A DNA stretch of 30,695 bases from Clostridia bacterium (GCA_017556845.1 JAFYMA010000147.1:1-30695), one strand, 5' to 3'. Positions 16,974-30,695 are shown, numbered from the stretch's first letter. The notes: generated by a model from the letters alone, not told the origin. Made by a program: numbers and translations.

Positions 16974-17309
16974 ATGCCAAGAAGTTACCAACATATCAAG
17001 AAATATGAGTCTGAAATAGTCAAGCTGAAGGAACAAGGATATACAAAACGAGAAATTGCAGAAAAGTTGGGATTTAGTAAAGAACAAATAAAAGGATTAC
17101 TAAAAAGAAAGAGAAAAAGAGAAGAAAAACAAGCTTATGGAATCATGCCGAAGAAAAGAGGTAGACCCACAAAAGATTATGTTGTAAGCGAACAAACAAA
17201 AGTTGCCGAACTAAAATATATTCTTGCTCGTAAAGAGGCCAAGATAAAGAGTTTGGAGATGGAGAATGAACTGATGCGGGATTTTCTCTCTCTCACAGAA
17301 AGGAAGTGA
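16974..17309 (+). CDS. IS3-family transposase OrfA (HTH)
   Basis: GYTKREIAEKLG HTH, KKRGRP, C-terminal coiled coil ENELMRDFL. Confidence 0.9.
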   Translation: MPRSYQHIKKYESEIVKLKEQGYTKREIAEKLGFSKEQIKGLLKRKRKREEKQAYGIMPKKRGRPTKDYVVSEQTKVAELKYILARKEAKIKSLEMENELMRDFLSLTERK

Positions 17310-18160
17310 GAACAAGCGTAAAATATATGGTAATCTATCGTCACAAAGATAAATATTCAATTAGTGAGATGTGCCAGTTCTTCGAGGTGTCGAGAAGTGG
17401 CTACTATGACTATGTCAAAAGAATGACTAAACCTGCATGGTATCTGCCTCTTGCCAACAAGATCAAAGAATGCCCGGACAAATGCGGAAAAACCTACGGT
17501 TATCGCCGCGTGCATATATGGCTTGAGCGCAACGGCATACATAAGAATCCCAAAACAATATTGCGAGTTATGCAAAAGTACAACTTGTTATCGGTAATCA
17601 GAAGACGCAGATTCTACAAACATACCGAGCATCTTCATAAATACCAAAATCTTTGGAAACAGAATTTCCAAGCAGATCGACCTAATCAAAAATGGGCAAC
17701 GGATATTTCGTACATACACACAAAGCAAGGTGTGCTATATCTTTCTATCATTCGAGATTTGTATGACGATAGCATTGTGGCATACAACACCGGGACTCAA
17801 CAGACGGTTAATCTTGTATTAGATACAATAAAAGCAGCTAAAAGAAAAGAGAAGGTCACTGCAGAGTTGCAGCTCCACAGTGACCAAGGCTTTCAATATA
17901 CTTCCCATGCATATTTCAAGCTTACTCAATCATACAACATTACACCGTCAATGTCAAGTAGAGGTAATCCTTATGACAATGCTATGGCAGAAAACTTCTT
18001 CTCAATTCTCAAAACCGAATGTATTTATCGTACAAAGTTGAAAACCTATGAGGAGGCGCGCCTCCTCATAGGCGAATACATACGTTTTTATAACAATGAA
18101 CGTATCCAAATAAAAACAAAACTGACTCCGCTTGAAAAACGAAGTCAGTATGTCGTCTAA
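17306..18160 (+). CDS. IS3-family transposase OrfB (DDE integrase core)
   Basis: YGYRRV, WATDISY (D), HSDQGFQY (D), DNAMAENFF (E), YNNER. In the -1 frame relative to orfA, with a GTGA overlap. Confidence 0.93.
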   Translation: MRTSVKYMVIYRHKDKYSISEMCQFFEVSRSGYYDYVKRMTKPAWYLPLANKIKECPDKCGKTYGYRRVHIWLERNGIHKNPKTILRVMQKYNLLSVIRRRRFYKHTEHLHKYQNLWKQNFQADRPNQKWATDISYIHTKQGVLYLSIIRDLYDDSIVAYNTGTQQTVNLVLDTIKAAKRKEKVTAELQLHSDQGFQYTSHAYFKLTQSYNITPSMSSRGNPYDNAMAENFFSILKTECIYRTKLKTYEEARLLIGEYIRFYNNERIQIKTKLTPLEKRSQYVV

Positions 18161-22529: not shown

Positions 22530-24326
22530 ATGTGCGGAATCATCGGATACACGGGCAAAGATCAGGCTTTACAAATAGTTATGCGCGGACTTGCTGCATT
22601 GGAGTACAGAGGGTACGATTCATGCGGCTTGTCCGCTTTTTCTTCTGACGGTGATGAAATAACGGTCATAAAAAAAGCAGGACGGCTGAAAGTGCTTTCC
22701 GAGGCACTCAGCACCGTACAGTTAAACACCCGATGCGCCATAGGCCATACCCGCTGGGCGACACACGGAGCGGTAACGGAAGAAAACGCCCATCCCCACA
22801 GAGTCGGCAAAACGGTCATAGTCCACAACGGCATAATAGAAAATTACAAGCAGATAGAAAGCGAATTGCAATGCTCATTTCAAGGCTCGACCGACACTGA
22901 ACGGGCTTGCGCTTTGATCGACCGCTATTACGAGCAGACACACGACGGAAAGCAGGCTATAATCAACGCCTGCTCACAGATCGAAGGCTCATACGCCTTT
23001 CTCATTATGTTTGAGGACGAAAAAGATACTATCTATGCAACGTCACGTGCGTGTCCTCTTATCGTTGGACACGGCGAAAACGGCTCTTGCGCCATCTCCG
23101 ATATATCTGCGTGCAGGCTTGATACTTACTGCCGGCTGAATGACGGTGAATCAGCGCGTTTGACTCCCGACGGAATATCAGTTTACGCTTCTGACGGGCA
23201 TGAGCTTAAAGGCAGACTTTTACCGACGGACGTAAAGACGGAATTGCCAAGCAAAAACGGATATCCGCATTTTATGCTGAAGGAAATAAATGAAATACCG
23301 ACGGTGCTCAGAAAAACGGTCGATGCAAATACAAAGGACGGTCTGCCTTTTTTCAAATCAATACCCGACAGCGTTTTAAAGGATATGAAGAGACTTACCG
23401 TTATCGGATGCGGTACGGCATATCACGCAGGTCTTTGCGCCGTTCACACAGCAAGAGAGCTATCCGGAATTGACGGGGCGGCGTATATTGCATCTGAATA
23501 CAGATACTCACGTCCGACGGTGAAAAAGGGCGATGTCGTCGTCTTCATATCTCAATCGGGAGAAACCGCTGATACGCTGGCGTGCATAAGAATGTGCCGA
23601 TCGCTCGGTGCGTATACGCTTGGAATAATCAATGTTCCGTATTCTACAGCATCGTTTGAATGTGACGGAGTGATATACACGCACGCAGGATTTGAAATAG
23701 CCGTAGCAAGCACGAAGGCATACGTTTGCCAGCTTGCCGCTTTATATCTGCTTATATTCAAGGCGTCTCTTTTACAAAATGCACTATCCGAAAAAAAGGT
23801 AAGTGAATATACGAAAATACTCAAAAATGACGTACCCGAGAACGCTTATATCGACGAGGAAAAACGCAAGACCGTATACAATATTGCAAAAAAGCATAAG
23901 GATTCTGAAAATATGTTTTATATAGGCAGAGGCATTGACAGTATTCTGTGCAGCGAGGCATCGCTCAAGCTGAAAGAGGTATCGTATATCCACAGTGAAG
24001 CGTATCCCGCGGGCGAATTGAAGCACGGGGCGATCTCGCTTATAACTCCCGACGTTTCAGTATTCGTTATAGCGACCGACAAAAAGCTGATCGGAAAGAC
24101 CGAAAACAATATGCAGGAGGTCTCGTCAAGAGGCGGCAGACTGATACTGCTCGGCGACAGCGAGATGAAGAGCTGTGACATAATTCCGTGCAATTCTTTA
24201 CAAGGCATCTTTTCACCGTTTGCCGCATCTCCGCTTTTCCAGTTATATGCATATTACACAGCTTTACTGCGCGGATGTGACCCCGATATGCCGAGAAACC
24301 TTGCAAAATCCGTAACAGTTGAATAA
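22530..24326 (+). CDS. glmS: Glutamine-fructose-6-phosphate transaminase
   Basis: MCGIIG, GHTRWATHG, HNGIIENY, SQSGETADT, VASTKAY, GELKHG, PRNLAKSVTVE. Confidence 0.97.
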   Translation: MCGIIGYTGKDQALQIVMRGLAALEYRGYDSCGLSAFSSDGDEITVIKKAGRLKVLSEALSTVQLNTRCAIGHTRWATHGAVTEENAHPHRVGKTVIVHNGIIENYKQIESELQCSFQGSTDTERACALIDRYYEQTHDGKQAIINACSQIEGSYAFLIMFEDEKDTIYATSRACPLIVGHGENGSCAISDISACRLDTYCRLNDGESARLTPDGISVYASDGHELKGRLLPTDVKTELPSKNGYPHFMLKEINEIPTVLRKTVDANTKDGLPFFKSIPDSVLKDMKRLTVIGCGTAYHAGLCAVHTARELSGIDGAAYIASEYRYSRPTVKKGDVVVFISQSGETADTLACIRMCRSLGAYTLGIINVPYSTASFECDGVIYTHAGFEIAVASTKAYVCQLAALYLLIFKASLLQNALSEKKVSEYTKILKNDVPENAYIDEEKRKTVYNIAKKHKDSENMFYIGRGIDSILCSEASLKLKEVSYIHSEAYPAGELKHGAISLITPDVSVFVIATDKKLIGKTENNMQEVSSRGGRLILLGDSEMKSCDIIPCNSLQGIFSPFAASPLFQLYAYYTALLRGCDPDMPRNLAKSVTVE

Positions 24327-24332
24327 AAATAC

Positions 24333-24368
24333 AAAAAAGGACCGACAGAGGATATCCTCTATCGGTCC
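24333..24368. terminator. Terminator hairpin between convergent glmS and the surface-protein gene
   Basis: GGACCGACAGAGG-ATAT-CCTCTATCGGTCC (12 of 13 bp). The A6 run upstream gives a U-tract on the minus strand. Confidence 0.8.
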
Positions 24369-24398
24369 CTTGCATTAAATACCCGATTTGAAATTCAA

Positions 24399-25172
24399 TT
24401 ATTTCTTGGACTTCTTAACGAGAACTACAGCAACTACTGCCGCTACAGCAACTACTGCTATTATAATGATTATGGGAAAAACGGGGCTGCTCTTGCCGTC
24501 GTCTGCCTTGTCATCACTGTTCGTTGCAGCGGGAGCCTTTGTGGAGGCGTCCGTTGAAGCGTTTGTTGCAGGCGCATTTGTTGCAGGAGCGTTCGTTGCA
24601 GGAGCGTTTGTAGCAGGTGCTTCGGTTGTAGCATTTGTTGCAGGAGCGTTCGTCGCAGGTGCTTCGGTTGCAACGTCTGTTGCAGGAGCGTTATCGCCAC
24701 CCTCTGTCTTTTCAACGAAAGTTACGCCGCTTATGGAAATACCGTGATTTGAAAGTCCGCTTACAATATAAACAAGACCGCTGTAATCACTGCTGATCTC
24801 GATCTCGCTTTCTCTGATAGCCTGACCCCAGAAGCCGTAGGGAACTGAGGGCTGGAAGCTGCCTATTTTATTTCCTTCTGCATCCTGAAGAAAAACGTTA
24901 TCACTGATATCATAGTATGCAGAAGGATCGCTACCGTAGTATACGATAACCTTGGAATAATCAGCAAGATTAAGATCGCCAAGGCAAGCCTTCGGAGCGT
25001 CGCTGTTAAGGAAGTTGATAGTAACTCCGTCAAATTGTGCACCCTCATGTACAAAAACGCATCCGTTTGTGAAATCCGTAATTGAAGAAATGTCTACCTC
25101 GTAGTCAGCGGCAAAAACGCCTAATGTAAAGACCATCATAAGAGCGATGGTAAGTGCGAAAAACTTTTTCAT
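24399..25172 (-). CDS. Secreted, membrane-anchored protein with a CBM-like beta-sandwich, Thr/Ala/Pro repeat stalk and C-terminal TM
   Basis: Signal peptide MKKFFALTIALMMVFTLGVFA after a GGAGG RBS; ATNAP repeats; TM IIIIIAVVAVAAVVAVVLV followed by KKSKK. Confidence 0.8.
   Translation of the reverse strand: MKKFFALTIALMMVFTLGVFAADYEVDISSITDFTNGCVFVHEGAQFDGVTINFLNSDAPKACLGDLNLADYSKVIVYYGSDPSAYYDISDNVFLQDAEGNKIGSFQPSVPYGFWGQAIRESEIEISSDYSGLVYIVSGLSNHGISISGVTFVEKTEGGDNAPATDVATEAPATNAPATNATTEAPATNAPATNAPATNAPATNASTDASTKAPAATNSDDKADDGKSSPVFPIIIIIAVVAVAAVVAVVLVKKSKK
24559..24693 (-). repeat. Degenerate 15 bp tandem repeat encoding ATNAP/ATEAP
   Basis: About 8-9 degenerate units of GCAACAAATGCTCCT-like sequence, translating as PATNAPATNATTEAPATNAPATNAPATNAPATNA. 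Confidence 0.9.
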
Positions 25173-25203
25173 GTTTTTCCTCCTATAATTATTTGTTAAT
25201 TGA

Positions 25204-25232
25204 ATTATATCACACAACTTTATTGTTGTCAA
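25204..25232 (-). promoter_or_regulatory. Perfect consensus sigma-A promoter of the repeat-stalk surface protein
   Basis: TTGACA-17 bp-TATAAT with extended -10 TG. Confidence 0.9.
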
Positions 25233-25265
25233 TAGAATTTTTCACCGTTCTGCTCATTGCATCCG

Positions 25266-27185
25266 TTAGTAACAGACGTATTTTATGAGAAGAGATTCTC
25301 TTTTGTTCGGTATTTTAAGCTGTATACCGTTTTGCGCAAGCTCTTTTCCCGAAAATATAAAGCTTTCGTTTGTATCGGCATTTATAAATTCATACGTTTT
25401 GCTTTCATCAATTCCGCCGAGCATAACGTCTGCCGCGGCAAACGGGCATTCTTCTCTGCGGAAGGCAAGTATTATACCGCTGCTCGTTTCAGGCTCGTCG
25501 TATTGCGATGCCGCCCAAGATACAGTTTCCTTTGAGTTTTTTATCAAAGGATAGAAATCGCAAGTAAAATAGTGCTGAACGGACAAATACTCATTGAAAT
25601 ACTTTCTCGCCCAATCGAACGGCTCGTTCGTCGCTCCGACCTCCCACTCAAAATCGGCATGCTCCCACGTACGAACAGTCATTCCGGGTGAGTAAGCACT
25701 TCTGAAGCTGTACGTATCACCGAGCGTAGGGCCGTATCCTACGCCTGAATAAGGATACCACCACGCATTTCCTATCGTCTGAAGCTGATAGCCCTCAGGA
25801 GCGTTATCCCATATACTGCAATAATCGCTTCTCCAAAGCGTTATAGACCTTGCAAGCGCTTCTATGTCAAGTCGGTGTCCGCCGCCTGCACAGTTGTCGA
25901 TAAGCAGATACGGGAACCTTTCAAGAAGTGTGTCCCAGAATCTGTAAAGGTTGTTTATGTATCTTATCTCATTTACACCGTCACGGTCATTTTCGTCGTT
26001 CAATCTCCAGAACGGGATTGGACCTATGTTGAAATCCTGTCTGTAAAGCGTTATGCCGAGCCTTTGTATAAGCTCGCTGACCTTTTCTATCAAAGCTTCC
26101 GCGACCTCATCCTTATGCAAAGCGATTATGACGTTTTTATCATTGGGATCGTGCATCGGCTTCATATATTCAGTCCACGGCTCTACGTTCAGATTGATCC
26201 TTTCAGGCTCAAACCAAAGCTGGAATTTTATATTCTTTTCCTTAAGCCATTGCACAGCGTCCGAAAGGCCGCCCGGATGATAAAGCTTGCTCACCTGCCA
26301 CGTTCCGACGGTGCCCCATTCTGCCGACTGCTCTGCACACGTTTTGCCCTTCATAGGCTCATACCATCCGGCATCCATCCAGCAATAATTGAACGGAAGA
26401 GCTTCCTTGAAGATACCCTGCCACCGCCTTTTTAAAGCATCGGTGGAAATTCCGCCCCAGAATATCGCAGAAAACGGGCATTCCTTATCACGCTGCTGCT
26501 TTCCGACGGGAGAAACACAGTCCTTTATGTATCTTCTCCACATATTGTGAGCGTTGTCCTGACCGTTGTCGTATTCAAGGACAGTTACAGATGACGTTCT
26601 GAATTTTTCGCCCGGCTTCATGTAAAATCGGACGCCCTCTATACGAGAAAGAAGCCTTACGTCCTTTTCTCCGCGCTCAAACTGAGCATTCCACTGGCCC
26701 GTCCAACCTATCGCCATGAGAACGCCCTTTTCCCGTCTGTTAAGATCAAAAAACGGTGACGTTCCCATTCCGCTTCTGCCCGAATGATTGGCTGCCTTCA
26801 GCGTTTCATTCGGCCAAAAGCGTGTGGCGTACGCCATATTATCGTAATCGGTGATGTTCGCTCCGTCTGTAATATAGAGCTTCAGCGTGTCAGTCGTCCA
26901 CACGGAATGCTTGTTTTTTCTGTTTTTCGCAGGATCTGCATCAAATTCAGCCGTAGTATCGCAGTCCCACAGATCTGATACTATACCGCTGTTACGGTCG
27001 GTATCATTGTACCAGTAATTCGTCCATTTTATTACGTTGTACTTTAGAAATCTTTCTATACGGCATTCTATGCACAAGCCGTCAGACAGAGTATATTTTA
27101 TTCCTTTTTCGGTTTCAACGATCGTTTTTTCAAGCTCCTCAAACGGAACGCCGTTATATTTAAAAGAAAAACCGGGATTTATCAT
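25266..27185 (-). CDS. Alpha-galactosidase (GH36)
   Basis: CWMDAGWY, LWFEPER, YRQDFN (nucleophile), IDNCAGGGHRLD, WRSD (acid/base). No signal peptide. Confidence 0.88.
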   Translation of the reverse strand: MINPGFSFKYNGVPFEELEKTIVETEKGIKYTLSDGLCIECRIERFLKYNVIKWTNYWYNDTDRNSGIVSDLWDCDTTAEFDADPAKNRKNKHSVWTTDTLKLYITDGANITDYDNMAYATRFWPNETLKAANHSGRSGMGTSPFFDLNRREKGVLMAIGWTGQWNAQFERGEKDVRLLSRIEGVRFYMKPGEKFRTSSVTVLEYDNGQDNAHNMWRRYIKDCVSPVGKQQRDKECPFSAIFWGGISTDALKRRWQGIFKEALPFNYCWMDAGWYEPMKGKTCAEQSAEWGTVGTWQVSKLYHPGGLSDAVQWLKEKNIKFQLWFEPERINLNVEPWTEYMKPMHDPNDKNVIIALHKDEVAEALIEKVSELIQRLGITLYRQDFNIGPIPFWRLNDENDRDGVNEIRYINNLYRFWDTLLERFPYLLIDNCAGGGHRLDIEALARSITLWRSDYCSIWDNAPEGYQLQTIGNAWWYPYSGVGYGPTLGDTYSFRSAYSPGMTVRTWEHADFEWEVGATNEPFDWARKYFNEYLSVQHYFTCDFYPLIKNSKETVSWAASQYDEPETSSGIILAFRREECPFAAADVMLGGIDESKTYEFINADTNESFIFSGKELAQNGIQLKIPNKRESLLIKYVCY

Positions 27186-28438
27186 ATTTCCTCCGCAACA
27201 TTATATTTTTGCATTTTTTCATTTTGAAGTGAAACACTCTGATCGTTTTTATAATATTTATTCACAAGGCTCACATAGCCCTGCTCTTTCATGTCGCCGT
27301 ATCTGAATTCAAACCGTGATTTATTACGTTTTCCCGTGGCTATATATCTTATACAGTCCTGCATATACAGATCTATCTGATGCAAGGAGCGATCTGTGCT
27401 TATCACGGGAAAAAACCACCTCGTCCACGTCAGCTCGTTCGATCTTGGATTATCGAAAAGCTTTCGGTTGAAGCACCGTATAAATACACGGCAGGCTTTT
27501 ATTCTGTCTACGTTGTTTTTGTCTGCCCAGCGGCACAGCGCCCTGCTTTTACGGCGCATCTTCCGTTTCAGTTTTTCCACGGATGCTCTGCAAATATCAA
27601 TTTCGCCGTTATTGTACGAAAAGCCCAAAAACGTCCATTCGGTATACGGCTGTGATACAGATTCCTTTTTTGAATTTATCTTAAGTCCCTTTTCATCCAA
27701 AACGCTTTTTATGTAGGAAATGCACGCTTCAAGCTCGTTTTCATTTTTTGCAAAAACGATAATATCGTCAGAATACCGTGCATACGGTATACCTCTGTCA
27801 AAAAAATATGCATCAAGCTCACTCAGATAAAGATCGGCAAGAAAGCCCGACACGGGAACACCCGCCATTATTCCTCTTTTCTGATATGTAGGCTCGTCGT
27901 TGTATAAAGCGTAGGGATATTCAAGAACGGAACGCAAAAACGAATAAAGGGCAGGATCGTTTGCCAAAGCGTTTTCAAGCATCGGCAACAGCTTTTCAAT
28001 GTCAACGGAATTGAAATAATCGCTGATGTCAAGCTTATACGCATAGTATCCGCTTATGCCGTCGAGCTTCAGAATATCGTTTATGGCATTTTTCACACCG
28101 TTGTTTTTTCTGAATGAATAAAGGTTGGGCGAAAAAATGCCGTCATACTCCGAAAGCATATACGCTATCAGCTTCAATACGTAGTTTTCTTCACGGCGGT
28201 AAACGTATACGGTACGCTTTTTATCCGTATTTGACTTGTTGAGAAGAACCTTTTGCGGTGGTGAAAAACAGCCGTTATTCAATATATCGTCCGCTATCGG
28301 AAGATATTCGCCGTTTTCAATGAATGTAAATAGATCGCCTCTTTCATCTATTGAAAGATTTCCGCACCTTTCTTTATGCTCAAAAAACGCAAGCCATTCT
28401 TCTTTATTTTTCAAACGCTCAAGTATACTGATGTGCAT
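27182..28438 (-). CDS. Stand-alone group II-like reverse transcriptase (YSDD), not within an intron
   Basis: RT1 PQKVLLNKSNTDKKRTV, RT2 FSPNLYSFR, RT3 KLDISDYFNSVD, RT4 GIMAGVPVSGFLADLYL, RT5 YARYSDD, RT6 GLKINSKK, RT7 FLGF, then a thumb-like C-terminal region with no endonuclease domain. GGAG RBS. Confidence 0.92.
   Translation of the reverse strand: MHISILERLKNKEEWLAFFEHKERCGNLSIDERGDLFTFIENGEYLPIADDILNNGCFSPPQKVLLNKSNTDKKRTVYVYRREENYVLKLIAYMLSEYDGIFSPNLYSFRKNNGVKNAINDILKLDGISGYYAYKLDISDYFNSVDIEKLLPMLENALANDPALYSFLRSVLEYPYALYNDEPTYQKRGIMAGVPVSGFLADLYLSELDAYFFDRGIPYARYSDDIIVFAKNENELEACISYIKSVLDEKGLKINSKKESVSQPYTEWTFLGFSYNNGEIDICRASVEKLKRKMRRKSRALCRWADKNNVDRIKACRVFIRCFNRKLFDNPRSNELTWTRWFFPVISTDRSLHQIDLYMQDCIRYIATGKRNKSRFEFRYGDMKEQGYVSLVNKYYKNDQSVSLQNEKMQKYNVAEEI
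27200..27228 (-). promoter_or_regulatory. Candidate promoter for the alpha-galactosidase, embedded in the RT 3' tail
   Basis: TTCAAA-17 bp-TATAAT directly before a GGAGG RBS; the resulting leader would be very short. Confidence 0.45.
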
Positions 28439-28452
28439 AAACGCTCCAAAAT

Positions 28453-28590
28453 AAAAAGACAGAGAGAAAATGCTTTAACAGCATAATTTTATGCTACTAA
28501 ACCGTACACGGACAAGCTACCTGCAAAGCTGTATGCAGTCCGTGCTTTGTTCACCGCAGGTGCAATAATGCGTTTCTCTCTGTTTTAAGC
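28453..28590 (-). ncRNA. Putative RT-associated structured non-coding RNA
   Basis: An 11 bp perfect IR (28459-28469 / 28573-28583) encloses three hairpins: CACC/GGTG, GCACGGAC/GTCCGTGT and AGCATA/TATGCT. It fills the gap directly upstream of the RT. Expression is not shown. Confidence 0.6.
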
Positions 28591-28603
28591 TGTTTTGACG
28601 TAT

Positions 28604-29056
28604 TTACAGATTTTCCTTTATTCTGTTCAATACGTAATTCTTTTCGTTTTCCCAACCGATATAAAATCTCATATACGGTATATTCTGCTCGTCAAGAATC
28701 GTATACGTGCCGACGGCGGGCATCGTCGTACGCTGATTTACACGCATTATCATAACTGCAAGGACGGGTGATCCATCCTTTTTGAACAGAAAAGTGATAG
28801 GAAAGCATTTCGGGTGGGCGTTACTGTCAAATCTGGACAGCATCACGTTTTGCTCTATACTGTATCCGGGAAAATTATCCTCGGTAAGCAAGGATGCGAA
28901 ATACTGAACGTTTGCGTTCGGGTTCGTGTCAACGAATTTTTTGAATTTAACGCTCTGCTCCTGCATTACAGGCTCTTTTTGTTCAGGCGTTTTCTGTGTG
29001 TTACCATCGGATGACGGCGAAAGCACCGCCTTAAGCAATTTATCTAAAAATCCCAT
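28604..29056 (-). CDS. Hypothetical 150 aa protein; C-terminal domain resembles a degenerate PD-(D/E)xK/DUF2726-like fold
   Basis: AAGGAG RBS before MGFLDKLL; IEQNV...PITFLF...PVLAVMI...IPYMRF pattern. The ORF is well supported; the fold call is tentative. Confidence 0.6.
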   Translation of the reverse strand: MGFLDKLLKAVLSPSSDGNTQKTPEQKEPVMQEQSVKFKKFVDTNPNANVQYFASLLTEDNFPGYSIEQNVMLSRFDSNAHPKCFPITFLFKKDGSPVLAVMIMRVNQRTTMPAVGTYTILDEQNIPYMRFYIGWENEKNYVLNRIKENL

Positions 29057-29080
29057 AAGTATCAACTCCTTTACAATTGA

Positions 29081-29109
29081 ATTTTATCACACAAAGTAAA
29101 AAAAGTCAA
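29081..29109 (-). promoter_or_regulatory. sigma-A promoter upstream of the hypothetical-ncRNA-RT unit
   Basis: TTGACT-17 bp-TAAAAT with extended -10 TG. Confidence 0.82.
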
Positions 29110-29164
29110 TAGCAAACGGCTATGAGCACACATTGACGCAATGCGGTATTAAAAAGCGGATCCG

Positions 29165-29710
29165 TCAGGATTCAAGATGCCTTGATAAGAAATTGCAGGC
29201 GGACAGAGTGAGCTTCAGCTCAACGTCGCTGCAGGCAGGATCGCTTTCTGAATCCTTGGCTATAATACATACACAGCCCGATACGTCGCCGCCCGAAATT
29301 ATCGGCGATGCACATACTATATGATAGCGGCTGTCGGGGCAGATATACAGCTTGGCACTTTCCCCATTGAACGCAAACGTCTTGCGTTTTTCCATAAGCT
29401 CCTCAAGCTCTCGGCTGATCTTTCTGTCCGAAAGCTCCTTTTTCGAAGCTCCCGCCAAAGCTACTATCTCGTCACGGTCACAAACGGCAATGCAAAGCCC
29501 CGATGCCTTGTTTATCGACTCAACGCAGTCGGTGGCAAAGCCGCTGAGCTGTGCCATATGCGAATACTTTTTAAAAATGACCTCACCGTCTTTATCGGTA
29601 AATATTTCAAGCGGCTCTCCCTCTCTTATTCTGAGAGTGCGGCGTATCTCCTTAGGAATGACCACCCGCCCCAAATCGTCGATTCTTCTCACAATACCTG
29701 TTGCTTTCAT
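29165..29710 (-). CDS. spoVT: Stage V sporulation protein T (AbrB-type DNA-binding domain plus GAF-like domain)
   Basis: MKATGIVRRIDDLGRVVIPKEIRRTLRIREGEPLEIF, C-terminal PIISGGDVSGCV and FLSRHLE. AGGAG RBS before ATG at 29710. Confidence 0.93.
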   Translation of the reverse strand: MKATGIVRRIDDLGRVVIPKEIRRTLRIREGEPLEIFTDKDGEVIFKKYSHMAQLSGFATDCVESINKASGLCIAVCDRDEIVALAGASKKELSDRKISRELEELMEKRKTFAFNGESAKLYICPDSRYHIVCASPIISGGDVSGCVCIIAKDSESDPACSDVELKLTLSACNFLSRHLES

Positions 29711-29793
29711 ATATACATTTCTCCTTAAATTACAAATTGTGTTGTTAGTATTTGTCAGCAAAGAAAAATTATACTGCTTTTAAAAAACGTTTA

Positions 29794-29822
29794 TTGACTT
29801 TTTTATCTACATATGATATTAT
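29794..29822 (+). promoter_or_regulatory. sigma-A promoter, divergent from spoVT
   Basis: TTGACT-17 bp-TATTAT with extended -10 TG. Confidence 0.75.
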
Positions 29823-29900
29823 TGAAGGGATGTTGCAGGTTGAGTAGGAAAGCAATATTTATAGCTGAACTTGTTTCTAAAATGATAGGAAGAAAGAAAA

Positions 29901-30272
29901 ATAGCAAAAAATACCATCCAATACGTTGAACCAAATATCTCAGATTTAGTAAATGGTTGGCTCAAATCATATAAAGTAGATTATAAGTTAGAGCAAGAAT
30001 CTTTGAACACGGAAATAGATCAGGCTCTCAATGACTATTTTTCTAAAAATGGCGGTAATCGTCCCGATACCAAACTGATTTTGAAAGCCAATGACGGCAA
30101 GGATTATCCCGTTCTTATTGAGTATAAAGGGTATAAAGATAAGCTCCTCGTTAAACTGGATGATGAGGGGAACGTTGCTAACAAAACTTCAAAGAATCAG
30201 CCCGACTTTGCTAACATCAACTCTTATGCAGTAAACGGTGCTGTTCATTATGCAAACGCTGTATTACATTAT
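29901..30272 (+). pseudogene. 5' fragment of a BcgI-like/type IIG restriction-modification enzyme (N-terminal nuclease domain)
   Basis: The frame reads (ATA)AKNTIQYVEPNISDLVNGWLKSY...EQESLN.EID.AL...NRPD...LIEYKG...YAVNGAVHYANAVLHY. There is an in-frame TAG at 29886 and no ATG, so the start appears mutated to ATA. Similarity stops abruptly at ~30272. Confidence 0.75.
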
Positions 30273-30369
30273 TATTACTCAGTATGTTCAGTTCCTCAGA
30301 ACTAACATTGAGCAGGGTTATTTCGATACTGAAACTCAGAACATCGGCCTTGCTGACGCTTTTAAATAA
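30268..30369 (+). pseudogene. Possible orphan 3' end of an unrelated gene
   Basis: A different frame reads IIITQYVQFLRTNIEQGYFDTETQNIGLADAFK* with biased codons (ACT, AAC, TTC, GCT), followed by a strong hairpin. It has no start of its own. Confidence 0.4.
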
Positions 30370-30383
30370 GAACAATTGGCAAA

Positions 30384-30418
30384 ATCGGGAGCCGTCGATG
30401 CTCTCGACGGTTCCCGAT
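30384..30418. terminator. 15 bp GC-rich hairpin (terminator or stabiliser)
   Basis: ATCGGGAGCCGTCGA-TGCTC-TCGACGGTTCCCGAT with one G-U pair. The U-tract is weak on + and short on -. Confidence 0.6.
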
Positions 30419-30487
30419 GAATTGCCCACTAACTTTAAAAAATGTTCCGAAATATGGATTTATATATTGATTACGGGAGTAGGAAAA

Positions 30488-30695
30488 ATGAAAAGAATTA
30501 TATTTCTTGTGATGATTACTTTGCTTGTTGTGGGGGCGTGCGGCTGTATGCGAGGTAGAACGAACCCTGGAACCGTTGATGAAAAAGATAAGACAGCAGA
30601 AGACTACCTAATAACTAAGTATGGTAGTGAGTTTTCTTTTTTATCAAATGGTGATGATGTTTGGTCATCGAAATCTAAAAGCTTGATTTTTTCAG
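30488..30695 (+). CDS. Putative lipoprotein, truncated by the window edge
   Basis: Manual translation: MKRIIFLVMITLLVVGACGCMRGRTNPGTVDEKDKTAEDYLITKYGSEF... with lipobox-like GACGC and a GGAG/AGGA RBS; open to the end of the window. Confidence 0.75.
   Translation, partial: MKRIIFLVMITLLVVGACGCMRGRTNPGTVDEKDKTAEDYLITKYGSEFSFLSNGDDVWSSKSKSLIFS

Follow-up and report, generated by a model that had tools for sequence, protein, structure and literature searches.

Class 2 of the UG/Abi reverse transcriptases (RTs) includes the DRT2, DRT9 and DRT10 systems, and each of its enzymes studied so far has given an unexpected form of DNA synthesis: DRT2 synthesizes a gene de novo, DRT9 makes poly-dA, and DRT10 produces telomerase-like repeats. 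The DRT10 noncoding RNA (ncRNA) is closed by its paired ends (SL1) and holds an A-B template just 3' of a boundary hairpin (SL5), with A' resetting the primer and a Ser/Tyr residue at the RT C-terminus acting as primer. UG26 is a further group of the same class 2 lineage; the survey of Mestre et al. (2022, PMC9226505) reported a gene of the COG2852/YcjD-like cluster 1531 beside 9 of 35 UG26 members and described no UG26 ncRNA. For the RNA motifs RT-1 to RT-19, the published description goes no further than their location close to RT genes (Weinberg et al. 2017, PMC5737381). Here we analyze a stretch of 30,695 nucleotides from a Clostridia bacterium (GCA_017556845.1, JAFYMA010000147.1:1-30695; "the window" denotes this whole stretch), the minus strand of which carries a UG26 RT gene, an RT-5 RNA and a small partner gene of the RTasCOG2852 family.

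The locus is almost certainly a complete and intact UG26/RT-5/RTasCOG2852 cassette, in the sense that each of the three parts belongs to the family named. Overall, the best explanation we can offer is a UG26 cassette that carries out RNA-templated, possibly repetitive, complementary DNA (cDNA) synthesis, to which we assign a probability of roughly 0.6. UG26 merits attention as a compact group that is common in gut and rumen Clostridia and has an RNA with strong covariation support; to the existing descriptions we add an extended RNA model, the uncoupling of the RNA from the RT, a negative result on defence-island context and a DRT10-like hypothesis for template and primer.

The reverse transcriptase and the layout of the cassette

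The cassette spans ~1.9 kb of the minus strand in the order promoter, partner gene, RT-5 RNA, RT. The promoter (29081..29109) is of the sigma-70 type, TTGACT-17-TAAAAT with an extended -10 TG, and ranks first among the 11 promoter-like sites of 27000-29400 (10/12 matches). It is followed by the 150-aa partner gene (28604..29056; ATG at 29056, stop at 28604-28606), by a 165-bp intergenic gap that holds the structured RNA (28439-28603) and by the 418-aa RT gene (27182..28438), in which the YSDD codons lie at 27764-27775 and those of Y395-Y396 at 27251-27256. A sequence-only reading of the window had placed the promoter, the 150-aa gene, the structured gap and an intact YSDD RT exactly here, and had seen in them a module of an ncRNA, a small partner and an RT that does not belong to introns, retrons, diversity-generating retroelements (DGRs) or CRISPR systems; both points stand, and the module is conserved. 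Its suggestion that the module falls outside recognizable classes has to be given up: all three parts, the RT family (RT_UG26, 543 bits), the RNA motif (RT-5) and the partner (RTasCOG2852), have models in public databases, and the cassette is not a new class.

The RT matches the PADLOC profile RT_UG26 from position 2 to 396 of 398 (E 8.6e-164), followed by UG27 (118.8 bits), UG17/DRT10 (109.4), Drt3a (97) and Drt9 (87.6); kinship among the UG groups is judged here by profile scores and not by a tree. As a member of the UG26 group of Mestre et al., it combines a full-length profile match with the lack of any fused domain (Pfam returns RVT_1 alone, E 4.7e-24) and with an upstream RTasCOG2852 partner. 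The YSDD motif (residues 222-225) is invariant across 36 homologues, and an AlphaFold 2 (AF2) model with a predicted local distance difference test (pLDDT) score of 91.8 comprises fingers, palm, thumb and a C-terminal helix. The second-best PADLOC family, UG27, occurs in gut Bacteroidota and Bacillota and likewise has a structured ncRNA adjoining the RT (Mestre et al. 2022, PMC9226505), but it is borne by gut phages and has other accessory clusters, whereas UG26 is chromosomal. The comparison with DRT2, DRT3 and DRT9 drawn by the sequence-only reading is apt, since the RT belongs to class 2 of the UG/Abi enzymes. Among solved structures of defence RTs, that of DRT9 (UG28) comes nearest to the RT model; DRT9 has an ncRNA upstream of the RT and primes on protein at the C-terminus. 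It differs in RT family (88 bits) and consists of ncRNA and RT with protein-primed poly-dA synthesis, whereas UG26 usually has a partner gene as well.

Homologues were collected from 399 genomes of the same class, in which a UG26-profile match at E <= 1e-40 was found in 20 (~15 of them above 460 bits), and from a metagenome scan that yielded more than 456 relatives, with 80 loci kept.

The overall fold of the RT raises a different explanation, namely that a group II intron has decayed or broken up here, or that the enzyme is a group II-like (G2L) RT without a system of its own. Indeed, the nearest solved fold to the model is the group II intron RT GsI-IIC (template modelling score, TM, 0.74), with DRT9 at TM 0.65 and 21% identity; group II intron RTs are also the closest sequence kin among solved structures (E 1.1e-27), and the group II intron RT/maturase model TIGR04416 scores 108 bits. 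That score, however, is far under the cut-off of 300, and an Rfam scan found no group II intron RNA at cut-off anywhere in the window, whereas the control locus L021 shows an intron RNA domain. The RT is moreover intact, its homologues are conserved at 36-95% identity, and it keeps its own RNA and partner in many contexts. We give an intron origin of this kind almost no weight. The absence of intron RNA around the RT had been noted by the sequence-only reading along with two other absences that hold as well: the NAxxH and VTG motifs of retrons are not found in the RT sequence, and no long repeat pair resembling the template and variable repeats (TR/VR) of DGRs occurs in 24000-30695, where the Rfam match is to RT-5 and not to the DGR-linked RT-10.

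A pseudoknotted RNA upstream of the RT gene

The gap between the partner gene and the RT gene contains a match to Rfam RF03026 (RT-5) at 28466-28565 that covers the whole model (1-104 of 104) with 82.3 bits against a gathering cut-off of 45.7; it ends 27 nt upstream of the RT start, and no other Rfam family exceeds its cut-off anywhere in the window. The gap was also said to be almost filled by a closed multi-hairpin structure, and its fold agrees, with a minimum free energy of -54.8 kcal/mol (z = -3.4) that none of 200 dinucleotide shuffles equalled. A covariance model of the RT-5 region with its flanks added (R1), scored on homologous loci, reaches 129 bits in the window and gives 85 full-length matches in 96 sources, located upstream of UG26 RTs, and more in the remaining loci.

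The conservation of structure upstream of homologous RTs, on which the idea of a three-part system depended, is clear from the alignment of these 85 RNAs: 89.3% of cells pair, as against 71.3% in shuffled alignments and 44-47% with slid partners, and 34 of 35 pairs show compensatory changes. The RNA structure is thus far beyond chance. In the window, the RNA extends over 28450..28588 on the minus strand and comprises the RT-5 core, a closing stem (P1) and a 3' U-run. P1 is formed by ACAGAGAGAAA (28573..28583) and UUUCUCUCUGU (28459..28469) and is followed by the U-run at 28453-28457, a terminator-like 3' end; across the alignment it comprises 12 bp, with 97.3% of cells paired and all 12 pairs changed on both sides, and a conserved UUU run comes after it in the consensus. 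The helices P2, P3 and P4 are paired in 86-97% of cells with compensatory changes at nearly every pair, and P5 is variable in length. Between the 5' tail (ACCUGCG, 28555..28561) and the hairpin loop of P4 (UGCAGGU, 28519..28525) runs a 7-bp pseudoknot that is paired in 98.7% of cells (78 distinct sequences), compared with 25-45% for slid partners, and that has undergone double changes from GC to AU in 16 sequences and from UA to CG in 7, as well as from CG to UA.

The window RNA shares with Rfam RT-5 the whole-model match above the gathering cut-off and the position directly upstream of an RT gene, and adds the covarying 12-bp P1 with its U-run and the 7-bp pseudoknot, the comparison being with the Rfam model and not with the original motif drawing. 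The functional RNA, as judged from the alignment, appears to be longer than that model, flanked by P1 and the U-run, with a length of ~135 nt (28588-28453). Where the partner gene is missing, a perfect TATAAT stands 7-12 nt ahead of P1, which suggests that the RNA can be transcribed on its own. We would expect it to be an abundant one, either ended at P1 and the U-run or begun at its own -10 box.

An alternative account would treat the RNA as a cis-acting leader, an attenuator or autoregulatory RT-binding site that controls RT expression and templates no cDNA. The RNA ends in a stem and U-run only ~15 nt ahead of the ribosome-binding site of the RT, a geometry that would suit a terminator or attenuator, and near-identical metatranscriptome contigs from bovine gut assemblies, which together span all three parts (partner gene, RNA and RT), include some that bridge the RNA and the RT start and so read through from one into the other. 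In 13 of the 15 strong UG26 genome loci the RT-5 RNA lies 25-77 nt upstream of the RT. In the two exceptions, which come from one genus, it lies in cis and on the same strand but is set apart from the RT by inserted genes: ~1.2 kb upstream in L006 (G290:C38), where an opposite-strand gene stands between RNA and RT, and ~7.3 kb upstream in G158, where the RNA is found at L113:7366-7508 (G158:C18). Because the RNA is separated from the RT in L006 and G158, it is not obligatorily the 5' leader of the RT mRNA. A covarying pseudoknot and a multi-helix core also exceed the needs of an attenuator, and the characterized class 2 UG RTs (DRT2, DRT9 and DRT10) all use their ncRNA as scaffold and template. 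We regard a pure leader function as quite improbable.

The same closing stem invites comparison with retrons, in which P1 would correspond to a1/a2 and the RT would prime from the 2'-OH of a conserved G to give multicopy single-stranded DNA (msDNA). An inverted repeat that closes an RNA directly upstream of an RT does recall a1/a2, and Weinberg et al. raised the possibility that retrons account for many of the RT motifs (PMC5737381). However, the RT has neither of the two retron motifs named above, it reaches 63.3 bits with the NCBIfam model retron_St85_RT (NF038233), whose cut-off is 235, and the PADLOC retron RT models fall far below UG26; an RNA of ~135 nt leaves no room for a long msd stem, and the partner is not a known retron effector. 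A retron-like product is very improbable on this evidence, even more so than a leader.

Among the metatranscriptome contigs, X15 and X17 stop at 29061 and 29057, a short way past the promoter, and reach no further upstream (depth is low); these contig ends near 29057-29061 weakly support the promoter position.

Candidate template and primer in comparison with DRT10

We hypothesize that the RT binds the RT-5 RNA and copies a short internal template, and RNA-templated cDNA synthesis by the cassette is, in our estimation, probable. The candidate template is the single-stranded junction between P5 and P1, GUUAAAGCAU with a UUAA core (28470..28479, minus strand), which corresponds in the RNA alignment consensus to a near-invariant UUUAA just 3' of P5. 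Directly 5' of it stands the hairpin P5 (AGCAUA/UAUGCU, 28480..28495, as in the Rfam structure), which we infer to be the template boundary by analogy with SL5 of DRT10; by the same analogy, the P5/P1 junction would be the most likely template. The RT-5 consensus has no long internal U-tract comparable to the poly-U template loop of DRT9, only UUU beside the invariant AA.

In many homologues the core of the junction lies in a direct repeat of the form A-B-A', in which the repeated element measures 4-6 nt and the period 7-11 nt, mostly 8-9 nt. Examples are GCUUU-AAC-GCUUU, GGAUU-UAAU-GGAUU, GAUUU-AAU-GAUUU and GUUUU-AAA-GUUUU, together with UGAAUU-UAA-UGAAUU, CUGUU-AAAUU-CUGUU and UAUUUC-AAAAA-UAUUUC. 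The low-complexity P1 strand interfered with an unrestricted search for direct repeats toward the 3' end of the RNA; its place was taken by an anchored test of self-match against cross-match at the junction, in which the self-match was the greater (permutation count 0/2000, 62 unique sequences). Such an arrangement would permit DRT10-like repeat addition with a repeat unit of ~8-9 nt, which for the window would read TGCTTTAA and for the consensus would be ATTAAATC-like.

Several observations count against repeat addition as a family-wide property. With sequences of less than 70% identity to each other (27 sequences) the signal is modest, the mean longest match being 3.52 as against 3.20 +/- 0.14 (p = 0.016); the window and its nearest relatives have a repeat of 2 nt only (UU-AAAGCA-UU, or GC...GC); and some lineages carry a palindrome at the junction instead of a direct repeat. 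No fossil tandem repeats matching the predicted product were found near 85 cassettes. The sole tandem repeat in these neighbourhoods, (AACTTAA)x6.9 in L013, has a unit that differs from that of the predicted cDNA. We consider a tandem-repeat cDNA product possible but doubtful.

Two further features of these RNA regions were observed. The L013 repeat (L013:1441-1490) sits between the RT-5 RNA and the RT start, ~5-50 nt past the ncRNA. In the subtype to which the window belongs, the UGCU that ends the 3' strand of P5 could pair with an AGCA four bases past the UUAA core (28470-28485), which would give an alternative small hairpin in competition with P5; the same pattern is present in L099.

Near the C-terminus, members of the RT family have in common the motif G-Y-x-S-L-V-x-x-[YF]-Y, which lies in the C-terminal helix of the model and precedes a short tail of variable sequence; 30 of 36 RT sequences have Tyr at the position of Y396. 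Because DRT9 and DRT10 prime on a C-terminal Ser/Tyr after a conserved helix, Y395 and Y396 are candidate primers, and the conserved tyrosine could serve as a protein primer for the proposed synthesis.

UG26 and DRT10 have in common a class 2 UG RT, a tripartite layout, an ncRNA whose 5' and 3' ends pair to close it, a hairpin directly 5' of a single-stranded loop (with A-B-A' at that place in many UG26 homologues) and a conserved hydroxyl residue near the RT C-terminus, which is Tyr in UG26. The two also differ. The RT families are distinct (109 vs 543 bits); the gene order is partner-RNA-RT in UG26 and RNA-SLATT-RT in DRT10; and the partner is a soluble degenerate nuclease fold in UG26 and a SLATT membrane protein in DRT10, with no SLATT found in the cassette neighbourhoods by clustering of flanking open reading frames (ORFs). 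The UG26 RNA has a pseudoknot, whereas the word is absent from the one DRT10 paper searched for it, and the cDNA product, described for DRT10, is a prediction for UG26.

The partner protein, genomic context and possible role

A hidden Markov model (HMM) of the partner detects a homologue whose gene ends shortly before the RNA begins in 66 of 81 loci, compared with 9 of 35 UG26 members in Mestre et al. The window partner is divergent and short: its C-terminal 100 residues match PADLOC RTasCOG2852 with E 2.2e-7, and 41 of 44 aligned partner relatives match the same model, the best with 9.4e-79. It consists of an N-terminal MGFLDKLLK motif, a disordered linker (8-44) and a C-terminal domain (45-150) that the AF2 model predicts with pLDDT >93 in the order alpha-beta-beta-beta-alpha-beta-alpha. 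Sequence search of the PDB and Pfam gave the partner no name, and Foldseek against the PDB returned nothing significant for its model; an exhaustive VIA structural search gave 3hrl_A (DUF559-like, Z 9.6), the catalytic domain of I-Bth0305I (Z 9.0) and Vsr (1cw0, Z 8.3), and AFDB clusters and the protein atlas pointed to DUF2726/DUF559. Conserved residues include Y52, F53, F62, L99, R130, N137, Y141, V142 and R145, and the N-terminus follows the pattern M-[GS]-[LF]-[LF]-x-K-L-[LF]. A single Glu (VVEL) is retained by most partner relatives and lost in the window subtype (LAVMIM). As modelled, then, the partner is a divergent, short RTasCOG2852 member with a Vsr/DUF559/DUF2726-type fold that lacks the catalytic motif.

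We infer that the partner is a non-catalytic protein that binds nucleic acid or the RT, with its N-terminal peptide as a docking or membrane motif. In the proposed mechanism, this protein, with its N-terminal motif, flexible linker and degenerate Vsr-type fold, would serve as sensor or effector, bound to the DNA product or to the RT. A more specific version, in which an A-B-A' junction template is carried on a pseudoknotted scaffold and a catalytically dead Vsr-fold partner with an N-terminal peptide motif serves as read-out in place of the SLATT pore, is rather unlikely as a whole; if true, the combination of an A-B-A' template with a dead Vsr-fold read-out would be new both as a DRT type and in its effector logic. 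In the partners of L028, L036 and L025 (257-275 aa), an N-terminal zinc ribbon (MKLTCDLCGG...) replaces the MGLFSKLF motif.

The cassette is a self-contained, patchily distributed, chromosomal three-part unit that occurs in varied contexts in gut and rumen Clostridia. Clustering of all ORFs flanking the cassettes gave no recurrent neighbour other than the partner. Close UG26 homologues were absent from phage and plasmid records, where, as in viral contigs, only distant RTs (<=35% identity) were found, and there is no evidence in these records that UG26 is carried by mobile elements.

We judge the chances that the cassette serves phage defence or abortive infection to be about even. A number of points tell against this role or against the mechanism as a whole. 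The 93 proteins that flank cassettes are mostly housekeeping (tRNA synthetases, PdxA, GlnA, FolD and others), with almost none matching defence models, and the neighbours in the window (SpoVT, a GH36 glycosidase, GlmS, GlmM and RarA) offer no defence-island context. The defence prediction for UG26 was inconclusive in Mestre et al. (2022, PMC9226505), and in a full-text literature search the name UG26 stood for an RT group in that paper and one survey alone, with no UG26 experiment. In the partner, the residues of a PD-(D/E)xK nuclease were not found in the family alignment, in which strand 2 lacks a conserved Asp and strand 3 an ExK, and no effector activity is evident. The metatranscriptome contigs, finally, have a depth of 2-10, too low for RNA ends or RNA abundance to be read from them, and may include DNA carry-over.

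Some of these circumstances lend support to a cassette that performs RNA-templated DNA synthesis for a purpose other than defence, as a selfish addiction module or in the housekeeping of DNA metabolism: the flanks are housekeeping genes without defence-gene enrichment, the phage and plasmid records searched lack UG26 and the viral contigs hold distant RTs only, and UG26 was not scorable as defence-associated by Mestre et al. (PMC9226505). The patchy distribution (~15 of the 399 genomes sampled from the class) and the variable insertion sites, which are typical of accessory, horizontally moving genes, speak against such a role, as does the record of the tested class 2 relatives, all of which are defence systems except UG27 and UG4. 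We regard a non-defence function as unlikely, with defence the better-favoured use of the proposed cDNA synthesis.

Some features of the wider genomic setting were also recorded. An IS3-family transposase (rve, HTH_21) is encoded at 17306-18160 of the window, ~9 kb from the cassette. Weaker UG26-like RTs (L017-L020, 272-353 bits) are without a clear RT-5 RNA, L017 alone giving a marginal match (24.7 bits). Two of them, at L019:85-435 and L020:3748-4102 (272-284 bits, without RT-5), lie beside a tmRNA gene and a tRNA; the vicinity of tmRNA and tRNA genes is a classic integration hotspot.

Downstream of the cassette, the RT stop overlaps the start of the GH36 (melibiase-like) gene as ATGA (27182-27185), and translation of the latter may be coupled to that of the RT; GH36 is a neighbour in this lineage only (the window, L001 and L002). 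Two promoter-like copies of 38 nt, at 25198-25235 and 29075-29112, are 76% identical and share the form CTATTGAC-N17-TGTGATAnAATTCAATT on the minus strand. The copy at 29075-29112 drives the cassette and that at 25198-25235 precedes a gene for a 277-aa surface protein; the block of partner, RNA, RT and GH36 stands between the two, an arrangement that may be the trace of a block insertion.

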